Shown in pieces: positions 32,703 to 41,676 of a stretch of 50,405 nt of DNA (position 1 is its first letter; every line of letters starts with the position of its first letter). The stretch is taken from the UHGV virus genome UHGV-0169486, one strand, 5' to 3'. The notes beneath the pieces are model-generated. The model did no database searches. It saw only the letters and a program-made list of their open reading frames with translations, and was not told the DNA's origin. Source of the stretch: a virus. Both the position numbers and the translations under genes were made by a program.

Positions 32703-33173
32703 TTATTTTTTGCGTAAGCACTGCGTTTTGATGTAGTCCTGCAATCCGGTGATCTTCGCGTCTTTCTCTTTTAGTTGTTCTCTGAGGGATAGATAAGCCG
32801 ATTCAGCGTCGGCAGTGAGTCTACAGGTGGCTCCATCAATGCGGCTGGCGGTTCCGGTATTGTCGAGCAATCGCACTGGCTCGGCGTTGACGTGCAACCT
32901 GATAGCGCCGCTATCAATGCCAGCGCGAAGATCGGCAATGTCAGATCTGATAGCTTTAATTTCATCGTGATACCTCTTATCAAGTTTTGATAGCTCTGCG
33001 TTTCGCTCCTTCATCTGCTGAATAGTGTTACTTGCTGTTTTTAGTGCGCCTTGCGTCACCGTGACTTCTTCCTGTAACCTTGCCGCCTCACCCTGGTAAT
33101 AACATGTAACGGCAGTTAGTCCGGCAATAATGCAAACAACAACGGCAATAACTAACGCCTTTACCTTGTCCAT
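32703..33173 (-). CDS. Rz: i-spanin (Rz-like)
   Basis: N-terminal TM segment, coiled-coil body; downstream of endolysin; contains embedded Rz1-like ORF. Confidence 0.75.
32771..32965 (-). CDS. Rz1: o-spanin (Rz1-like lipoprotein) embedded in Rz in +1 frame
   Basis: Signal peptide with lipobox LSGC; Pro-rich mature part; fully embedded in Rz. Confidence 0.6.
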   Translation of the reverse strand: MKLKLSDLTLPIFALALIAALSGCTSTPSQCDCSTIPEPPAALMEPPVDSLPTLNRLIYPSENN

Positions 33174-33652
33174 GTTTCACCCCATTCGCAAACGGCATAT
33201 TCAATATCACGACGGTTAATTAACCCTTGCCACTGCTTACCACCAGCATAGATCCAGCGTTTAAGCTGTGCGCACGCTTCCGATTTCTTGCCGTCATTGA
33301 GTAGCTTCAATAATGTTGATGTTTTAAAGTTGGTAGCGCCTACGTTATAGGCGAATGAATAAAGCGCCGCGCGGGTAAAATCTGATATTTCGACTTTAAT
33401 ATAGGGGTCGATCGCTTTTGCGGTTTTGTGGAGATCTTTATTTAACAAAGCATCGCATTCTGATTGCGTGTAAGTCTTACCAAGCATGATGTCTTTTCCG
33501 GTATGACCATAACATACAGTCCATACACCGATAACATCACGATACGGATCGTACTCCACGCCTTCTAATGATTTAACCATCACAGCCGCAATAGAGATCG
33601 CCCCACCAGCCGCCGCAGCAATAATCTTGTTCTTCAGCGATTGGCTAATCAT
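33161..33652 (-). CDS. SAR endolysin (lysozyme, phage 21 R-like)
   Basis: N-terminal SAR-like hydrophobic segment [15 protein letters not shown] followed by lysozyme catalytic region [10 protein letters not shown]...[11 protein letters not shown]; recalled similarity to phage 21 lysozyme. Confidence 0.85.
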
Positions 33653-33853
33653 TTACTTATTCCCCATTCGCGCGTCGTGTTCCTCTTGCGCTCGCTTGTT
33701 CTCCTGTGATTTGAAGTAATAGTTAACGGCAAATGTACCTGCGGTTGATAAGATACCCACAAAGACAGCAACATCATTGATGGTTATCGCACCGAAAAAG
33801 GCCGTTACGGCCCCTACTGCATACGCGCACGTCTCCCGTATTTTGTCGAGCAT
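33653..33853 (-). CDS. holin (class II / pinholin-like)
   Basis: 66 aa, two TM segments, charged C-terminus; GGAGG RBS; immediately upstream of endolysin. Confidence 0.7.
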   Translation of the reverse strand: MLDKIRETCAYAVGAVTAFFGAITINDVAVFVGILSTAGTFAVNYYFKSQENKRAQEEHDARMGNK

Positions 33854-33869
33854 AGATTTACCTCCAACA

Positions 33870-33896
33870 AAGCAAAAACCCGGCGCTGGGCCGGGT
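33870..33896 (-). terminator. rho-independent terminator just upstream of holin RBS (tR'-like, candidate target of Q antitermination)
   Basis: CCCGGC-ccagc-GCCGGG followed by TTTTTGCTTTGTT on minus strand, then holin RBS. Confidence 0.55.
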
Positions 33897-33961
33897 AATT
33901 ACAATTTCGCATTGTTAGGAAGTATTTTAATCTATTTGTTTTTTATGCGCGATCATGGCTT

Positions 33962-34135
33962 CTATTTCTTCTTTATCAGGCCATTATCAAGCAATATTTG
34001 CATCTGTTCACGATCCATGTTTACGCCAGTCCAGAAAGGATGCTCACTCGACATAACAAAAACCTTTTCCTCTTTCAGCAAGTAAGCAATATCAAATAAG
34101 TTATGCACATATACACCGTCTTCGATCTCATTCAT
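33962..34135 (-). CDS. possible small protein (57 aa)
   Basis: Own translation MNEIEDGVYVHNLFDIAYLLKEEKVFVMSSEHPFWTGVNMDREQMQILLDNGLIKKK; AAGG RBS. Confidence 0.3.
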   Translation of the reverse strand: MNEIEDGVYVHNLFDIAYLLKEEKVFVMSSEHPFWTGVNMDREQMQILLDNGLIKKK

Positions 34136-34318
34136 AAATCACCAACCTTGCGCCAGTACCCATGATTAACCATCGTAATAATTTCTTTCGCTGTCATAGG
34201 TAAAAATGGCTCATGTCACCGATCAAGTCTACCCAGGCGCATCAAAACGCTTTCGCCTTCAAGGCGGTAATAAGCGCGTGATGCTAACGACTGATAAACG
34301 CCGTCATATTCATGGTCG

Positions 34319-34519
34319 CTATTTCCCATTTTTGCGCTCCTTAATAGCTCGCATGATCTGTATGCGCGTAGCGTCTACAAAAGCGTAAAAGACTGCTACA
34401 GGCCAGAAAGTAATCTCAAGACCACCACGATCGAGATCGTTAGATTTGATGAAACAAGACATCAGGATAGCGCCAGCGATATAAAGGAGAACCACCGCAA
34501 GGATAAGACATTCAATCAT
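34319..34519 (-). CDS. small membrane protein
   Basis: ORF track; hydrophobic N-terminal segments. Confidence 0.45.
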   Translation of the reverse strand: MIECLILAVVLLYIAGAILMSCFIKSNDLDRGGLEITFWPVAVFYAFVDATRIQIMRAIKERKNGK

Positions 34520-34652
34520 CTTCTTTCTCCCCGCCTAAATATTGATAAATTTCTTCAGCGTTTTCCCCTCGCTCAAAACAATAATGTTCAAACATGCGCC
34601 AATGTTCACTAAGAAACATAACAATAAAATTATTAACGTATTCGTCATTCAT
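34512..34652 (-). CDS. possible acidic small protein (46 aa)
   Basis: Own translation MNDEYVNNFIVMFLSEHWRMFEHYCFERGENAEEIYQYLGGEKEDD; AGAGGA RBS. Confidence 0.35.
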   Translation of the reverse strand: MNDEYVNNFIVMFLSEHWRMFEHYCFERGENAEEIYQYLGGEKEDD

Positions 34653-34654
34653 CG

Positions 34655-34909
34655 TTAATCGTCCTCTTCATCGTCTTCTTGTTCTGCCAGGAATTCATCG
34701 ACGGCGCGGGAAGTGACTGGCGGGATGTATTCGAAATCATCATCCGTATCAAGATCAAGCGTCCTGCTGTCGCCGTCGTCGTCAATCGTAATCATCCCTA
34801 AGTTACCGAAAGGGCCATAACCAATATGGCCCAGGTATTCACAACCAGGTGTAAATCCGATATATTTATTTTTACACCGGATTTTGTAAGGTTTATTTGA
34901 TGCGCTCAA
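34655..34909 (-). CDS. hypothetical acidic protein
   Basis: ORF track; TTG start with GGAG RBS. Confidence 0.45.
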   Translation of the reverse strand: MSASNKPYKIRCKNKYIGFTPGCEYLGHIGYGPFGNLGMITIDDDGDSRTLDLDTDDDFEYIPPVTSRAVDEFLAEQEDDEEDD

Positions 34910-35216
34910 TTTTAGAATCTCCGCTTTCTGTTTCGGTTATTTTGTATTCCGCGACCACTTCCGCGCCAACCAATTCGACATCAGCATCAGGGCAAGGATT
35001 AATCATCAGTGAAGCGAAAACGAACATTTTAATTTTATCAGGGTGTTCAAGATGCTCTGGATTAAAAGGCGGCTCCGATACGTGGAAGCATTTAACATGT
35101 TCTTCGTCTTCCGTTGCTACACGGAAACATGCGCCAGGCATCCCACCGAATTCGCCGTATTTCTCACCTTCTGGAATAGTGCCACGGAAAACTTTAACGC
35201 TGATAAATTTAGTCAT
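34893..35216 (-). CDS. hypothetical protein
   Basis: ORF track; strong GAAGGAGA RBS. Confidence 0.55.
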   Translation of the reverse strand: MTKFISVKVFRGTIPEGEKYGEFGGMPGACFRVATEDEEHVKCFHVSEPPFNPEHLEHPDKIKMFVFASLMINPCPDADVELVGAEVVAEYKITETESGDSKIERIK

Positions 35217-35219
35217 TGT

Positions 35220-35474
35220 TTATTCTCCTTCGTAAAAAACAGCTACCAGTTCAGGATTGTTTAATGGGTTAGGGCAAGAATAAAAACCACTTCGCAATAA
35301 TCCTCTAAGCGCCTTCATTTTTCTGTGCACCGGGATTGATTCGCTTAAATAGAAATCATCTTTCCTTTTGTCATAAGGTAGCTCGTAAAACCTACCGTAA
35401 TTGACGAATTGAACGACGCGACAAAACTCACCATCAGCCTTACTATTGCCGCGCCATATTTTGATTATCTCCAT
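35220..35474 (-). CDS. hypothetical protein
   Basis: ORF track; GGAG RBS. Confidence 0.5.
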   Translation of the reverse strand: MEIIKIWRGNSKADGEFCRVVQFVNYGRFYELPYDKRKDDFYLSESIPVHRKMKALRGLLRSGFYSCPNPLNNPELVAVFYEGE

Positions 35475-35632
35475 AATTAATACTCCACACCTGGTAAGCT
35501 ACGCGCCTTATGAACTGCGTCCTTTGCGTCAACCAATGCCGCGCCAAACTCGTAGATCTTGCCATTCTTAAAAAACGCGCTGCATCGTGAGTATGTACAC
35601 TGGTATCTATGTTTCCTACTCATAACCATCAC

Positions 35633-35887
35633 CTATTCCGGTTTACTGCCTTCGCGGTCACAAAATACAGCTACGCCGTGGAAGTCATGCACGATGCGAT
35701 AATAAACCTTGTCAGTGTGTGGAAAGCGTGTGACATAAGCAAAATAAACCTTATCATCATCACCAGTTATCGCCATTGCGCCATCACCGCCCGGTGCGCC
35801 GTGGAGTTGAACGCCGCAGTAAATTTTCCCGTCTTCGAATATATCGCGGTCACGCGTCTGCACTACCTCAAAATATAAATGTTTCAT
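35633..35887 (-). CDS. hypothetical protein
   Basis: ORF track (35633..35992); internal ATG 35887 with AAGGGG RBS preferred. Confidence 0.45.
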   Translation of the reverse strand: MKHLYFEVVQTRDRDIFEDGKIYCGVQLHGAPGGDGAMAITGDDDKVYFAYVTRFPHTDKVYYRIVHDFHGVAVFCDREGSKPE

Positions 35888-35897
35888 GTCTACCCCT

Positions 35898-36110
35898 TTA
35901 ATAACGTTCAAAGCTGGCAGCAAAACCCACGCCGGATATTTCACCGCCACTGTAGCTCGGCCTGAATATCCAGATCTCATCTTGATTGTCAATCAAGGCA
36001 AGGCAGTTATTCATTGTGTGATTTTCGTTGCCATAAACGATGTGAACGTCATAAATACGTCCAGTCGTGAAAACGCCGTCATTGCTTGAGTATGAGCATT
36101 TAACTTGCAT
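35898..36110 (-). CDS. hypothetical protein
   Basis: ORF track; AAAGGGG RBS. Confidence 0.5.
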   Translation of the reverse strand: MQVKCSYSSNDGVFTTGRIYDVHIVYGNENHTMNNCLALIDNQDEIWIFRPSYSGGEISGVGFAASFERY

Positions 36111-36361
36111 TAGAAAACCCCTTTATAATCGACCGTATATTTTGCTATCAGATTCCAGTCGCAATAGTTGAGCATGTCGCGCGGTTGCCAGCCTTTCATC
36201 CCGACCGCCCGCCGCGCGGCGTGACGGCGATAATCATCGTTATAATCAGCCATGCACCACGGCTGGAGGACAAACATATAATTTGCTTCATTAACCAGGA
36301 TAGCTACACGCTTTCCTGTCACCTTGTCTTTCGCCCTGAAATAATTCACTTTCATTTTCAT
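36110..36361 (-). CDS. hypothetical protein
   Basis: ORF track; operon packing. Confidence 0.5.
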   Translation of the reverse strand: MKMKVNYFRAKDKVTGKRVAILVNEANYMFVLQPWCMADYNDDYRRHAARRAVGMKGWQPRDMLNYCDWNLIAKYTVDYKGVF

Positions 36362-36573
36362 TTCAATACCTCGTCGATCAGCATTTCTTCTTCCAGGTTA
36401 GCCGGATGTTTACGGAATATCCCGGCAAAAACCAGATCATCAAGTAGGTCTTTACGCTTAAATAACCACTCTTTCATTATCACCCCGTCGTCGCTGCGAT
36501 ATACGACGCCACTTTTCAGAAAATAAAAAGTGCGGCTATTTGTCTGGAGGTATAAATCCTCGTAAACGTCCAT
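36358..36573 (-). CDS. hypothetical protein
   Basis: ORF track; GAGGG RBS. Confidence 0.5.
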   Translation of the reverse strand: MDVYEDLYLQTNSRTFYFLKSGVVYRSDDGVIMKEWLFKRKDLLDDLVFAGIFRKHPANLEEEMLIDEVLK

Positions 36574-36577
36574 GATA

Positions 36578-36805
36578 TTAACCCTCGACTACTTGCAAGC
36601 CGCGCCCCTTATCGCCTACGAAGTCGCCCAGGCTAAACGTATATGACCACGCCGGGTTAATGTAGTGATCATCAGCACCGTGAGCGATAAGGTCTTTACC
36701 CATAATGACGCAGGTCACATCATCAGAATGAACGACGTCTACCGTTTCCCCTACCACGCGTTTTAATGACGGGTATCCGTGATCGTGCAAGAATTTAACT
36801 TTCAT
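36578..36805 (-). CDS. hypothetical protein
   Basis: ORF track (36578..36838); ATG 36805 with AAGGG RBS. Confidence 0.45.
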   Translation of the reverse strand: MKVKFLHDHGYPSLKRVVGETVDVVHSDDVTCVIMGKDLIAHGADDHYINPAWSYTFSLGDFVGDKGRGLQVVEG

Positions 36806-37088
36806 ATTTTTTACCCTTATAAGTAACAGCATCAGCAATCAACAATACCGCCAGCATTTCACCGTCATGCAACGGATCTGGAATAGAAAAAAATATGTCG
36901 CTGTTTTTGTCAGGCACTACTACGCGCATATTGCCTTGTTTGTCTTCATGAACAAACCACGGCTTTTCGTGTGGCTCAAACATACCGAAAAGCAATTTAA
37001 GATCTATTTCTTCGCCCTTCGTGAATAACGATACGTCCGTTGTAGCGATAACTAACGCTTTCTGATCTGCCACTTTCTTCGTTCTCAT
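36795..37088 (-). CDS. hypothetical protein
   Basis: ORF track. Confidence 0.5.
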   Translation of the reverse strand: MRTKKVADQKALVIATTDVSLFTKGEEIDLKLLFGMFEPHEKPWFVHEDKQGNMRVVVPDKNSDIFFSIPDPLHDGEMLAVLLIADAVTYKGKKYES

Positions 37089-37318
37089 TCTTCTGCCTCC
37101 CAGCGGTCAATGCTGATTAGAAAATCACGGATAGCGTGGCGCTCGTCGCGCGTTGGCTTGCGCTTCCGGTAAATCTTAAAGTCAAACCATTCTTTTTCTT
37201 GTTCGAAATCCAGGTCGTAAGCAAGCGCCTCAATATATCCACATTCGTGATACTGGTACGCCACGCCAGCACGAACAAAAAAGCGGGTTTTATCCCGCTT
37301 GTGTTCATAGATACGCAT
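37085..37318 (-). CDS. hypothetical protein
   Basis: ORF track; overlaps neighbour by 4 nt. Confidence 0.5.
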   Translation of the reverse strand: MRIYEHKRDKTRFFVRAGVAYQYHECGYIEALAYDLDFEQEKEWFDFKIYRKRKPTRDERHAIRDFLISIDRWEAEE

Positions 37319-37328
37319 ATTTACCCCG

Positions 37329-37559
37329 CTATGCAGTTGTGTAGCTGTCTACCAGCTTTTCATCCTTCATTCTGGCAAGCTGGGCGATGTTCATCGTGTA
37401 GCCGCCATCAGAGAAAAGCCACTCCGCAGCCTTGCGACGAAAAGCGATATCATCATGGTTACGCGTCCATGTGGCGATCACCGCGCGCTTTCCGTCAGTG
37501 GCAAACATACTTAACTCATTATCAACTACGTCGATAGCCTGCCAAATTTTTAGCTCCAT
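37329..37559 (-). CDS. hypothetical protein
   Basis: ORF track. Confidence 0.5.
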   Translation of the reverse strand: MELKIWQAIDVVDNELSMFATDGKRAVIATWTRNHDDIAFRRKAAEWLFSDGGYTMNIAQLARMKDEKLVDSYTTA

Positions 37560-37915
37560 GATTTATCTCCGTAGATCTTGAATAGTTCCCGTGCTTCCTG
37601 GTCTTCAAATAGATTCATATGCAGGTTATGTAGTCGGCGCATTGTGCGGAAGCGCGGTCTGAATTCCTGGTTTCTTTTAATGAACTTACCACCAATTGAA
37701 TAAATATGACCGTATGAATACCATCTATTACCCACCCAAATTTGATATTCTTCACCTTCATAATTAATTTTGATTGTAAGCTCGTCAACCTCCATTATTA
37801 ATCCTTTGTCGAGGATATCGTTTAACATCGAATCCCACTCTTTAAGGAAAGGTTGTTGATAAAAACCGAAAAGTGTATTTGCTGCATGGCAAAGGTAATC
37901 AATGATTATTTGCAT
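37550..37915 (-). CDS. hypothetical protein
   Basis: ORF track; GGTGA RBS. Confidence 0.5.
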   Translation of the reverse strand: MQIIIDYLCHAANTLFGFYQQPFLKEWDSMLNDILDKGLIMEVDELTIKINYEGEEYQIWVGNRWYSYGHIYSIGGKFIKRNQEFRPRFRTMRRLHNLHMNLFEDQEARELFKIYGDKSWS

Positions 37916-37919
37916 GTTG

Positions 37920-38120
37920 TCACCACATCATATAATAAACGTTATCGTCAGCTAATTCGTCAGCGTCTTTTTGACAGTCGATTGTCGCATCGTCTTCGTG
38001 CCATTCTTTCGCGAATAAACGCGCCCATTTACGACGCTCACGCTTATTGCGTCGCAAATCATCAAAAACCATTAAAGCCTTATCGTAAGCTCTTACCATG
38101 CGTTTCATTCTACTTTTCAT
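37920..38120 (-). CDS. hypothetical basic small protein
   Basis: ORF track; strong AAGGAAGGTGA RBS. Confidence 0.5.
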   Translation of the reverse strand: MKSRMKRMVRAYDKALMVFDDLRRNKRERRKWARLFAKEWHEDDATIDCQKDADELADDNVYYMMW

Positions 38121-38325
38121 CTTTCACCTTCCTTAATTCCTTAATTTCAATATTGCGCAACCGGACGTCGCACGGCGTTTCAGATTTACCAGTAAGCGCC
38201 AGCGTCAGGTTTTCAGGTGTCGTGTAAAGGATTATCTCTTTACCTGTGCTAAATTTAATTTCTATGCGGATCTCGTTTTCGTCACCGCACAATACACGGC
38301 TAATTGATAGGCCAGCTTTTTTCAT
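38110..38325 (-). CDS. hypothetical protein
   Basis: ORF track. Confidence 0.5.
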   Translation of the reverse strand: MKKAGLSISRVLCGDENEIRIEIKFSTGKEIILYTTPENLTLALTGKSETPCDVRLRNIEIKELRKVKDEK

Positions 38326-38630
38326 TGCTCACCCCACCTTAACATCCAATTCACATCACACTTAATTGCGAATACCTTAACAGGATCAGGGCCGAATAAT
38401 GGATGCGTGATAGTTTTTACTTCGTACCCGAAATAAGGCAGGTTTATAATCCGGTGCGCTTCGTGGCTGGCTGGATACCCCAGCTTAATGATCAGGCGTT
38501 CATATTTCCGCCCTTCCAGGCGTTTACGCCAATAGTCATTGTAAAGCCTGTATTCTTCCACCTTCTTTCCCGCCCGGATGGCGTAAAAGTATTCTCCTTT
38601 CAGGTTTAAATGTAGATCTTTACTTGCCAT
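38322..38630 (-). CDS. hypothetical protein (possibly ASCH/PUA-like)
   Basis: ORF track (38322..38666); ATG 38630 with AGGAG RBS; domain guess is weak. Confidence 0.45.
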   Translation of the reverse strand: MASKDLHLNLKGEYFYAIRAGKKVEEYRLYNDYWRKRLEGRKYERLIIKLGYPASHEAHRIINLPYFGYEVKTITHPLFGPDPVKVFAIKCDVNWMLRWGEQ

Positions 38631-38892
38631 CGCTATGCTCCTGTAAAAAGTCGTTATAGCCTTCAATGTATCCGGTCAATCCGGTGTTACTAACTGACCA
38701 TTCAGCCGTCCGTCGCTTGATGGCTTCATCCATTATAATTTCACCTTTGCGATGGCATCCGGCATCAATATAGCGGTTAACAACCGAAGATAGCCGCCCG
38801 CGTAGCTGTTGTGTCCCGGCGTAATATCGTGCTGTATCCGCAAGCGCGTTAACCAACTGGCGGTAAATATGTTCTTTTAATTTAGGCTTCAT
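38620..38892 (-). CDS. hypothetical protein
   Basis: ORF track (38620..38943); ATG 38892 with GAGGGTGA RBS. Confidence 0.5.
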   Translation of the reverse strand: MKPKLKEHIYRQLVNALADTARYYAGTQQLRGRLSSVVNRYIDAGCHRKGEIIMDEAIKRRTAEWSVSNTGLTGYIEGYNDFLQEHSDGK

Positions 38893-39232
38893 TATCATCA
38901 CCCTCGAAATACTGCTCAATCGCACGTTTGACGTTAATTTCACGCTGATAATTGTTATTGCTGTAGATTGCTGCTGCCGATACGTGATCGATAATTTGCT
39001 GTAATAAATCAGGATGAATTTTTATTTTTTCGTCAAGGACAATGCGCTCTGGTTCTGGCGCTTCGGCGTTATCTTCAATAATTTCTATCTCACCACTACC
39101 ACCGCATCGCGGACAAACAAACTTATCGCCTTGATACAGAAAGAGGCCACAACCTTTTTCAGTCTTAACGACCATGCCGTCTTCGTAGCAGTTTTCGCAA
39201 TATAACCACCCGATATTAATTATTTTCATCAT
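38882..39232 (-). CDS. zinc-ribbon protein (CxxC...CxxC)
   Basis: ORF track (38882..39289); ATG 39232; CENC and CPRC pairs. Confidence 0.5.
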   Translation of the reverse strand: MMKIINIGWLYCENCYEDGMVVKTEKGCGLFLYQGDKFVCPRCGGSGEIEIIEDNAEAPEPERIVLDEKIKIHPDLLQQIIDHVSAAAIYSNNNYQREINVKRAIEQYFEGDDNEA

Positions 39233-39416
39233 CGCCCCGCTTATAGATATGCACTGGCTTAACAGGAATGGCAGGCAATTCGCCTTCATTTAACGCGCTT
39301 GCCATACCTAATATTAAACGCGCTTCCGCACCAGTAACTTTCTTACACCATGCGCCGCCTGTTTTGTCTTCAAATAAGATAACAGCGAACTGATCGTTTA
39401 TTTCCAGCTTATCCAT
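39216..39416 (-). CDS. hypothetical protein
   Basis: ORF track; directly downstream of Q. Confidence 0.5.
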   Translation of the reverse strand: MDKLEINDQFAVILFEDKTGGAWCKKVTGAEARLILGMASALNEGELPAIPVKPVHIYKRGDDENN

Positions 39417-40138
39417 TATTCACCCCGTGTCACTCGCTTGATTTCGCTTTCCGCGCGGGCTTCTTCTTTGAATAGCTCCGCTATGGCGTCCTCATAGAAA
39501 ACCCTGTATTTCTTCCACCATGTTGATCGGCTTACCGGGAAAACAAGCTGGTTAACAGCCTGCCGGACAAGATCTACAGGGAAACGCGAGTAGCCTCGCC
39601 CGCCGCAGTGCTGGCACGTTTTGAATACTGGCATTTCCGCCGCTTCGCTGGCTGTTTTATCCGGTATCTCGCCACTCCCCTTGCATTGTTTACAATGATT
39701 GCGAACCTTTCCATGCCCCTTGCATTTTTTGCAAAGATGTTTTTCTCCGTAGTCGTCAAACGTAAATTTATATCCGCCGCACTCCATACAAGTTTTTTCC
39801 GTCGCGGCGCTTTGGCAATAATCCCGAAACGCGAAAACGGCAACAAGAATAATAAGATCATTGCGTTGTTCTTCATTTAATTCCATCACATATTCGTAAT
39901 CTTTCGCCATAGCTCTTAAACGCTCTGTAAGCAATACTACAGCCCTGTGTTTTTCGGCTTGCGATAGCTCCATCTTCCCTAAAAAAGCACTATAGCCAAG
40001 CTCTACGCGCGATTGCGCCATACCCGCAGCGGTTAGCGCATCAGTCGTATTAAGCGCATCCGGGGATGTGCCCCGGCTTTCGTCTGATAATCGCGGTGAT
40101 TTGGGAAAGTGGAATTTCAGAATGGATTCTAAATTCAT
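39416..40138 (-). CDS. Q: late-gene antiterminator Q-like protein with Cys-rich insertion
   Basis: N-terminus MNLESILKFHFPKSPRLSDESRG...AAGMAQS recalled as similar to lambda Q; multiple CxxC pairs; GGGGGGA RBS. Confidence 0.75.
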   Translation of the reverse strand: MNLESILKFHFPKSPRLSDESRGTSPDALNTTDALTAAGMAQSRVELGYSAFLGKMELSQAEKHRAVVLLTERLRAMAKDYEYVMELNEEQRNDLIILVAVFAFRDYCQSAATEKTCMECGGYKFTFDDYGEKHLCKKCKGHGKVRNHCKQCKGSGEIPDKTASEAAEMPVFKTCQHCGGRGYSRFPVDLVRQAVNQLVFPVSRSTWWKKYRVFYEDAIAELFKEEARAESEIKRVTRGE

Positions 40139-40320
40139 TATTTCCCCCCGTAACGAGCAATAAGTTGTTTACGATCAGAAATAGACTGGACTAACTTTTT
40201 CTCAAGCTCTTTCAATGCAAGCAATTCGCGCATATGAAAAGCCTGGATTTGTCGGACTGTAGCTAAATCATGCTCATCGCGCTGAATATCTATTTGCAGA
40301 TCTTTAACTTCGTTTTTCAT
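40138..40320 (-). CDS. hypothetical coiled-coil small protein
   Basis: ORF track; TAATG coupling with Q start. Confidence 0.45.
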   Translation of the reverse strand: MKNEVKDLQIDIQRDEHDLATVRQIQAFHMRELLALKELEKKLVQSISDRKQLIARYGGK

Positions 40321-40724
40321 TGCTCACCCCACATATTAGTCGCGTATTCGTCAATATCCGGTAGTAGGTCGCCGCGTTCGCGGATCTTAATAAACAAGCG
40401 TCCGCCTTTTACCTTCCGGCAGCGGACAATTTTTATTGAGTCAATTTGTCCATCATCTTTCCAAAATCCGGCATAAGTAAGGCTGTCAAATAGGCATTTA
40501 GGGATATTATCAAGATCCCTGGTCCGGTTATCAGGCGGCGCGGCATAAATGGCGATTGCCAGTCGGCAAGACAGGTTAATGTCTAGATTTAATAATTCGA
40601 TGATGTCTTTTACTTGTTCCCGGTATTCCTTCCCCACTTCGCTGATATAGTGAAAACCCCGTGAATGTCGGTAATAGCGGTTATTCGATGGCGGGTAAGG
40701 CAGGCTAAAGGTATATTCATTCAT
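40317..40724 (-). CDS. rusA: RusA-family Holliday junction resolvase
   Basis: N-terminus SLPYPPSNNRYYRHSRG and DLDN motif recalled as matching RusA; ATGA overlap with NinG stop. Confidence 0.85.
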   Translation of the reverse strand: MNEYTFSLPYPPSNNRYYRHSRGFHYISEVGKEYREQVKDIIELLNLDINLSCRLAIAIYAAPPDNRTRDLDNIPKCLFDSLTYAGFWKDDGQIDSIKIVRCRKVKGGRLFIKIRERGDLLPDIDEYATNMWGEQ

Positions 40725-41326
40725 GCTGCCTTTCTCCTTAAGGCGTCCAATTTCGCCTGATAGATGTTTATTAGCTCCTTACATTCTGCGATCGTCCATT
40801 TGTGTGTATCGTTGTTGTTCTCCAGCGCAACCACCATTGCGAGGCCAATTTTTCGAATCAGCGCAGGGCGATACCCTCCGGTGTTTCCGTCTAATGTCTG
40901 GTTGCAGTGCCTGCATTGTTTATGGCAATTATCCTCGTTAAAGCGAAGGTGTCCGGCGGCGGCTACCGTCCTGTAATGGCCCGCATCCCACCCGCATTGC
41001 TCACCGTAGTAAGTCCCGCAAGATATACACGGCAATCGCGCGTCACGCTCGCGTATATAAGCGTTAAAAACGTTTTGCGCCTGTTTAATCCAGTAGCTAC
41101 GCGGATTTAACTGCTTCCGCTTCCGGTTTCGTTCTTCCCGCTGGCTATCACGGCGTTTCTTCCGTTCCATAGCCTTCATAGCCTTCTCACGGTCGCGGCA
41201 TAGCTGATCAAACTTCAGTTCTTCCAGACATTCATCGCTGCACCACGTCTGGTTGTGATATTTAGGCTCAAAAAAAACGCCGCAGCATTTGCAACGGCGT
41301 CTTATGGTTTTTTTAGGGTTCTGCAT
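40721..41326 (-). CDS. ninG: NinG/Rap-like recombination protein
   Basis: Recalled similarity to lambda NinG (RRCK..C, PRSYWIKQAQ, CISCGT, WDAGHYRT, FNE.N.HKQC); ATG 41326 with GGGGTGG RBS (track start 41416 is in an overlapping region). Confidence 0.8.
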   Translation of the reverse strand: MQNPKKTIRRRCKCCGVFFEPKYHNQTWCSDECLEELKFDQLCRDREKAMKAMERKKRRDSQREERNRKRKQLNPRSYWIKQAQNVFNAYIRERDARLPCISCGTYYGEQCGWDAGHYRTVAAAGHLRFNEDNCHKQCRHCNQTLDGNTGGYRPALIRKIGLAMVVALENNNDTHKWTIAECKELINIYQAKLDALRRKAA

Positions 41327-41340
41327 AAAAACCACCCCGA

Positions 41341-41517
41341 TTATTTTTGATTCTCTGTTTCGTTCCGCCTTTCGGCGTGTCCGGCCCTTAGCCAATGTTC
41401 TAAGCATTCGTTGCACTCGTTACAGCCTCCTTTCTTCGTGCTGCATACATTGCACATTGCACGCATGACGCTTTCTCTTTCATAGTCGTCATGCCATTGG
41501 TAATCATCAAAAGACAT
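41341..41517 (-). CDS. small Cys-rich (zinc ribbon-like) protein, 58 aa
   Basis: Own translation MSFDDYQWHDDYERESVMRAMCNVCSTKKGGCNECNECLEHW...; strong AAAAGGAGAGAG RBS. Confidence 0.4.
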   Translation of the reverse strand: MSFDDYQWHDDYERESVMRAMCNVCSTKKGGCNECNECLEHWLRAGHAERRNETENQK

Positions 41518-41543: not shown

Positions 41544-41579
41544 CTACGCATTTCAGCGATGCCGGATTTTTAAAGAGTA
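41544..41579 (-). promoter_or_regulatory. third boxA/boxB-like element (CTCTTTAAAAATCCGG plus short hairpin)
   Basis: 16-mer identical to the nutR-like boxA at 48877-48892, in sense orientation on minus strand; preceded by TTGTTC-16-TATACT promoter-like sequence. Confidence 0.4.
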
Positions 41580-41676
41580 TTTTGTTTGCTTGAAGTATAC
41601 AAAACGGATGCGCCAGAACAAGGCGAAAAGCGCCATTATGTGATGCATATCACGCTATGACGCCATTTTGTAAACT

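Follow-up and report, generated by a model that had tools for sequence, protein, structure and literature searches.

A candidate late promoter, pause element and terminator packed directly before the holin gene of an mEp021-group phage, 5.5 kb from its Q antiterminator gene

Where does a Q antiterminator act when its gene is not followed by a late promoter? In the Q-dependent regulatory cassette of lambdoid phages, the Q gene is followed directly by the PR' transcription unit (PMC9388147). The DNA analysed here, called the window below, is a stretch of 50,405 nt from virus genome UHGV-0169486, and it departs from that arrangement in that the Q stop codon and the -10 of the candidate late promoter are separated by 5,486 nt and about 23 genes. 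An earlier note on this DNA offered two possibilities, either a late promoter and Q-utilisation (qut) site just upstream of the terminator that precedes the holin gene, or a block of small genes that is itself under Q control, and it regarded both layouts as unusual. The span singled out there, 33870-34318, covers the module described below except for the last bases of the T-tract and the ribosome-binding site.

All of the relevant genes lie on the minus strand and are transcribed from high to low coordinates. In the order of transcription, they are:

40721-41416, minus: NinG
40317-40724, minus: RusA
between RusA and Q, minus: an ORF of 60 aa
39416-40138, minus: Q antiterminator gene, 240 aa (Pfam Antiterm PF03589, the lambda-Q family)
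33962-39416, minus: small-gene block of about 23 ORFs, taken from the ORF map, function not assigned by PHROG
between the small-gene block and holin, minus: spacer of 108 nt, which holds the hairpin and T-tract
33653-33853, minus: holin (Pfam Phage_holin_2_3, 5e-15), ATG at 33853, first gene of the predicted late operon
33161-33652, minus: endolysin (Pfam Phage_lysozyme, 2e-44)
32703-33173, minus: Rz spanin (Pfam Phage_lysis, 1e-24)
32771-32983, minus: embedded ORF, putative Rz1 as judged by its position and lipoprotein-like sequence

The distance from Q to the lysis genes, previously put at about 5 kb with about 22 ORFs between, was confirmed and is more closely 5.5 kb with about 23. The stop codon of Q overlaps the start codon of the next gene by one base, leaving no intergenic gap after Q. 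Within the block, neighbouring small ORFs of the ORF map overlap or lie at most 10 nt apart, the sole exception being the interval 34136-34215. Because 18 of the 20 small ORFs that were tested match PHROG families, each of them a family of unknown function, we take these ORFs to be real phage genes. From their packing and the absence of signals, the small genes most likely make up the far end of the early-right operon and share a transcript with Q. Across relatives the Q-to-holin block ranges from 1.9 to 6.7 kb and is variable in gene content. Between the Q stop and the module there are 3,027-6,725 nt (median 5,486; n = 46, counting the window and loci L060 and L061), and about 1.9 kb in mEp021.

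Midway through the block, another good terminator-like hairpin, AAGCGGGATAAAACCCGCTT, followed by TTTTTT (37281-37300, minus; z -3.3) falls within the start of a 77-aa gene. If this hairpin is active, the distal small genes would need N-type antitermination for expression. Separately, gene 41 of mEp021 (L002:4307-4555), which lies in the Q-holin block, carries the annotation of a virion structural protein, detected by mass spectrometry, which is unexpected for a gene that is predicted here to be early.

The region is 84-87% identical to mEp021, mEp010, mEp013, mEp044, mEp515, mEp554 and MagusPhagus. These seven phage genomes match over 36-78% of a 6.6-kb query and share its gene order, and we assign the window on sequence to the temperate mEp021/mEp-immI coliphage group. 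The accessible part of one study (PMC11893012) describes the mEp-immI phages as Nus-dependent non-lambdoid coliphages and attributes to the mEp021 group an N-like protein, Gp17, together with three nut sites, the third of which (nutR2) lies upstream of ninG and Q in mEp021. The same part gives terminators t1, t2 and t5 as experimentally demonstrated; judged by its order along the genome, t5 is probably the hairpin before the holin gene. A lambda-Q-like protein is mentioned in that part of the study, the terms 'late promoter' and 'qut' do not occur there, and 'promoter' appears solely as the vector Ptac; the supplements contain nothing on terminators or late genes. The accessible portions of the published mEp-group text describe neither a late promoter nor a pause element or Q site. 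GenBank records of the group already annotate both the Q-like gene and the pre-holin terminator (TERM_5 in mEp021; T9, T10 and T8 in mEp010, mEp013 and mEp044, respectively), and what is new here is the PR'-like anatomy of the spacer.

A boxA-like sequence with a short hairpin, ACTCTTTAAAAATCCGGCATCGCTGAAATGCG, is found in the window at ~41548-41580 (minus), upstream of the NinF-like and NinG genes. This boxA-like region is nearly identical to the mEp021 region reported to hold nutR2.

The gene at 39416-40138 had been called Q-like from its sequence, and two comparisons confirm that assignment. Its match to PF03589 passes the curated threshold (E 5e-29; 100.7 bits, cutoff 26.7), and a phmmer search of the product against lambda Q from PDB 7UBM gave an E value of 7.6e-37. 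We counted a Q protein as full-length if both the N-terminal segment (the RNA-exit nozzle) and the C-terminal body were aligned. Residues 1-114 and 148-238 of the window Q align to residues 1-114 and 117-207 of lambda Q, so that the homology is full-length. In the alignment, G39 and the C-terminal VTR of lambda Q are retained, and the zinc-ribbon arm cysteines C149, C152, C175 and C178 are invariant in lambda and throughout the subfamily. By profile and by full-length alignment, we identify the window Q as a homologue of the lambda-family Q antiterminators.

Residues 115-147 of Q (39698-39796, minus) form a 33-aa insert that bears two additional CxxC motifs and sits at the arm's base, where the zinc-ribbon arm of lambda Q begins. 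In lambda, the Q arm contacts DNA positions 11-13 and sigma region 4. Because the insert sits in the arm that makes these contacts, the geometry of the Q site in this subfamily may differ from that of lambda. The length of the insert varies in the subfamily from 33 to about 95 aa, with four CxxC motifs in all and a weak match to the DnaJ zinc finger.

The PR' region of lambda (J02459) reads TTGACT-17-TAAATT-TGACTC-AACGAT-GGG. Its AACGAT is a sigma70-dependent pause element at +1 to +6, and polymerase pauses at +16 (PMC4005639). The spacer before the holin gene in the window reads TCGCGC-17-TAAAAT-ACTTCCT-AACAAT-GCG, and a terminator stem begins 14 nt past AACAAT. The elements of the spacer are:

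33947-33952, minus: candidate -35 TCGCGC, 17 nt before the -10, 2/6 match to consensus
33930-33942, minus: 13-nt spacer AAAACAAATAGAT between -35 and -10, nearly invariant
33924-33929, minus: candidate late-promoter -10 TAAAAT, 5/6 match, aligning with lambda TAAATT
33911-33916, minus: -10-like repeat AACAAT, candidate sigma70-dependent pause element, 7 nt after the -10
33874-33896, minus: intrinsic terminator (tR'-like) with a 7-bp GC-rich stem, a 5-nt loop and a T-run
33865-33861, minus: holin ribosome-binding site GGAGG, 8 nt after the T-run

TAAAAT lies 27 nt before the terminator stem; measured to where the T-run ends, the distance is about 50 nt, the figure given earlier. A simple consensus promoter scan did not list the TAAAAT site. 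The strength of the promoter is uncertain because its -35 is poor, matching at 2/6 positions in the window and at 3/6 in most relatives, where it reads TTGTRG. The transcript start is predicted at or near 33916, with a pause expected near 33901-33900 and a terminated leader RNA of 43-46 nt; on this numbering the terminator would occupy +21 to +43, its stem +21 to +39. By its position and size the 13-nt spacer is a candidate for the Q-binding element, which in lambda is a 13-bp asymmetric site (PMC9388147).

To describe the arrangement as a whole, we defined a composite pattern of TANNNT, 6-7 nt, AAYRAT and a terminator within 70 nt. The pattern turns up once when both strands of the 50-kb window are counted, compared with 0.05 occurrences expected from shuffles, a count that is supportive and not independent since AAYRAT was generalised only after the sequences were seen. 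Each related locus has a single occurrence, invariably downstream of Q and on the strand of Q. A second hexamer pair in the window, TAAAAT-N7-AATAAT-GGC (25749-25731, minus), was dismissed as a chance match, lying inside a 427-aa gene of the structural region and without a terminator. It is similar to the module found in the lineage with 50% Q identity (see below).

The terminator stem ACCCGGC/GCCGGGT (33896-33890 / 33884-33878) encloses the loop CCAGC and is followed by a T-run to 33874. GGAGG begins 8 nt past the T-run, in agreement with a terminator about 10 nt before the holin ribosome-binding site as noted earlier. We scanned 11 kb for terminator-like sites, and this hairpin (-13.6 kcal/mol, z -2.4) was listed at the top. 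The same scan found 15 sites where 11.6 were expected, so the hairpin by itself is statistically unremarkable. The whole predicted leader has a folding energy of -20.3 kcal/mol (z -3.8), which none of 200 shuffles equalled. It is the conservation of the hairpin, not its mere presence, that is remarkable: in 42 distinct relatives the stem, the T-run and the spacing are invariant or nearly so, and the loop is variable.

Within the predicted leader (33866-33916, minus), an A-rich GCGAAA can pair with the U-tract and would thereby lengthen the terminator hairpin. A mini-hairpin in the leader, ACAAT/ATTGT, was rejected, since a T-to-C change at 33904 breaks the pairing in half of the relatives. An Rfam search of the whole window returned no family at threshold.

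For close relatives we used a set of 43 IMG/VR loci in which Q is 83-100% identical; Q is full-length and conserved in all of them. Each of the 43 loci contains both hexamers and the terminator in one copy each and at fixed spacing. Across the 42 distinct sequences, no column varies in either the -10 (0/6) or the repeat (0/6), the stem core is invariant, and variation is confined to the linker, the hairpin loop and the spacers. Variable columns number 4 of 38 within the model-defined elements and 29 of 53 in the remainder of the spacer (Fisher p 1.7e-5). By comparison, 52 of 66 third codon positions in holin are variable among these sequences. In a wider set, conservation sets in sharply at 33941, some 25 nt ahead of the predicted start, and extends into holin, and among the phage genomes the conserved block begins only at about 34149. 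The gene just upstream of the module is highly variable. Because the conserved block runs on into the highly conserved holin gene, part of this conservation could reflect a recombination boundary and not regulatory constraint. Of 5,426 complete E. coli genomes, 31 contain the module, each in a single copy. Between the type of Q (240 or 242 aa) and the variant found upstream of the module we saw no co-variation, each type occurring with both variants.

More distant lineages carry the same arrangement. In locus L060, where Q is 75% identical, the module is kept with a 6-nt linker and the gene upstream of it is a different one. In loci L055-57, which belong to the same phage type and have a Q of 50% identity, about 12 small genes follow Q and the module lies 3 kb from Q. 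There the sequence before holin reads TATAAT-TCCCTC-AATAAT, followed after 17 nt by a 10-bp hairpin and a T-run. The architecture in L055-57 is thus that of the window, and the sequence is different.

We then surveyed 72 loci that carry the same Q subfamily and come from many Enterobacterales. In a Citrobacter prophage the arrangement TTTACA-17-TAATCT-N6-AATGAT-20 nt-terminator stands directly after Q, in a Serratia prophage the corresponding sequence is TTTACT-16-TAATTT-N6-AACGATGGG-25 nt-terminator, again directly after Q, and the module after Q in a Xenorhabdus prophage is similar to these two. A strict module was present in 46 of the 72 loci, with the -10 starting 27-64 nt past the Q stop and mostly with AACGATGGG; most of the non-strict loci have variant repeats at the same position after Q. 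The terminator stem begins 17-38 nt after the repeat in 40 of the 46 strict loci, and a short leader is therefore normal in this Q subfamily. The classical lambdoid prophages among these loci (Citrobacter, Kluyvera, Serratia, Xenorhabdus, Enterobacter, Proteus and others; L058, L064-L146) have the same Q subfamily with the arm insert and share with the window the compact module; their terminator stem lies 17-38 nt after the repeat. They differ in the position of the module, 27-64 nt from the Q stop, in its good -35 (frequently TTTACT) and in the several hundred nt that usually separate it from the lysis genes. Separation of Q and module by 2-6.7 kb is the exception in the subfamily, and adjacency is the norm. 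The layout is thus unusual, as the earlier note had it, in the separation of Q from its site (27-64 nt being the norm), but not in the short leader, which 40 of 46 loci possess.

The two kinds of module also differ in their promoter elements. In classical modules the -35 matches at 4 or more of 6 positions in 49 of 59 cases and is paired with a moderate or weaker -10, whereas displaced modules combine a weak -35, matching at 1-3/6, with a -10 close to consensus (TAAAAT or TATAAT). Such a trade-off between -35 and -10 fits both module types being working promoters.

Taken with the gene order, these comparisons make it likely, in our judgement, that the 108-nt spacer is a compact lambda-type Q-utilisation module and that the small genes lie outside Q control. 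Promoter, pause element and terminator are most likely packed into about 80 nt right before holin. Of the two possibilities raised earlier, a late promoter and qut site just upstream of the terminator, using TAAAAT and giving a very short leader, is the one that gains comparative support: TAAAAT and AACAAT stand at lambda-like spacing and are both invariant in relatives, and the same architecture occurs in the 50% Q lineage and after Q in dozens of prophages with this Q subfamily.

With the anatomy, its conservation and its recurrence observed directly, we infer where transcription starts and pauses, how Q binds and when the small genes are expressed, as follows. A sigma70 promoter with a good -10, TAAAAT, and a weak -35 would initiate at about 33916. 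Sigma70 would re-engage AACAAT at +1 to +6 and cause polymerase to pause near +16, where Q, encoded 5.5 kb upstream, would bind the 13-nt spacer and load onto the paused complex. The Q-modified polymerase would then pass the terminator at +21 to +43 and proceed into the holin, endolysin, spanin and structural genes, and without Q an RNA of 43-46 nt would be made and released. The small genes would form the tail of the early-right operon, transcribed together with Q, an operon that is Gp17/nut-dependent in mEp021. The pre-holin terminator would also end this operon, closing the small-gene block upstream as well as the leader. Late expression need not depend on Q alone, because N-modified polymerase might also read through the pre-holin terminator.

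The weak candidate -35 also suits an explanation in which the hairpin is an early-right terminator only, the late genes are reached by readthrough of Gp17-modified polymerase, and the hexamers are neither promoter nor pause element. The accessible part of PMC11893012 describes an N-like antiterminator and, upstream of ninG and Q, a third nut site; it also gives t5, probably this terminator, as experimentally demonstrated, and the matching boxA-like sequence is present in the window. However, a full-length Q, kept at 83-100% identity in all relatives, would then have no target, and the explanation is at odds with two invariant hexamers and an architecture that recurs both in the 50% lineage and, directly behind Q, in classical prophages. 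We consider it unlikely. Because the -35 of the module is very weak, one can also suppose that the module has no effective promoter and acts as an internal Q-loading site for complexes of the early operon. In that case sigma70 would rebind arriving elongation complexes at TAAAAT/AACAAT, Q would load there, and early and late genes would form one continuous transcription unit whose switch lies at the terminator. A milder version holds that the separation of Q from its site has been selected, which would provide a delayed-early slot for fast-turnover accessory genes and a longer delay before lysis. Whether in the stronger or the milder version, this idea seems to us quite improbable.

Other explanations place the late promoter elsewhere. 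Near the terminator the consensus scan listed a single site, TGAACA-16-GATAAT (34010-33983, minus; 9/12), inside a 57-aa gene; used as the late promoter, it would yield a leader of about 100 nt ending at the same terminator. This site is not conserved: mEp013, mEp010 and mEp044 have GATAAC, losing the critical last T, the -35 varies too, and the whole 57-aa gene is absent in L060, in which the module is kept. Nor does a -10-like repeat follow it at pause distance. We rejected this site, and a late promoter at this position is very unlikely. Q control of the small-gene block, the second possibility raised earlier, would proceed from a PR'-like site just after Q, and a candidate exists in GTGACA-16-TAAGCT-N7-AACGAT (39434-39393). 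Its AACGAT matches the lambda pause hexamer exactly and stands where the classical arrangement has it, about 20 nt past the Q stop, and the strict core pattern (39411-39393) is met only about once per 7 kb per strand. The core nevertheless lies inside the codons MDKLEIND of the next gene, where synonymous changes (GACAAGTTAGAA) destroy the -10 in relatives. It is also missing from the alternative allele of that gene and from the lineages with 45%, 50% and 75% Q identity, and no terminator follows it. With no gap after Q and a look-alike that is coding, unconserved and without a terminator, we rejected this site too; control of the small genes by Q is unsupported, and we give it hardly any credence. 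The look-alike itself could be chance or the decayed remnant of an ancestral Q-adjacent PR'.

Set beside lambda, the window has a homologous Q and the same succession of a -10, 6-7 nt, a -10-like repeat at the transcript start and an intrinsic terminator, which is followed by holin, endolysin and spanin and then by structural genes. A conserved 13-nt element occupies the promoter spacer, where the Q-binding element of lambda lies. Of the features that define the Q-dependent cassette (PMC9388147), the -10-like repeat at the predicted start and the terminator before the late genes are present by sequence. The differences are in dimensions and detail. Q and module are 5.5 kb apart (1.9-6.7 kb in relatives) compared with 77 nt in lambda, and the predicted leader is about 45 nt compared with 194 nt. 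Unlike lambda, the window has about 20 nt between terminator and holin start, a weak -35, and a Q whose arm contains an additional zinc-knuckle insert. The linker measures 7 nt, in contrast to 6 nt in lambda and most relatives, and GCG follows the repeat where lambda has GGG. Shiga-toxin phages such as 933W resemble the window in that accessory genes, several kb of them, separate Q from the lysis genes. In those phages the accessory genes lie downstream of PR' and tR' and are Q-controlled, whereas the small genes of the window lie upstream of the module and would not be.

If the spacer is indeed the Q-utilisation module, a lambda-type Q acts naturally on a site 2-7 kb from its own gene; lambda Q is reported to act preferentially in cis. 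The most variable gene cargo of the group would then sit in the early operon and not under Q. The proposed scheme provides a specific and testable map of the late switch in a coliphage group whose reported frequency in human faeces equals that of lambdoid phages and in which only N-like early antitermination has been studied so far. In addition, the promoter-pause-terminator unit of roughly 45 nt would be a compact natural cassette, usable in reporter or synthetic designs.

Lastly, the 57-aa gene that adjoins the module (33962-34135, minus) is variable in every alignment column across the 42 relatives. It is missing in one lineage, L060, where the other gene present at this place (L060:17014-17226) has its stop codon within the -10. 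The edge of the variable region falls inside the promoter, at about -25.
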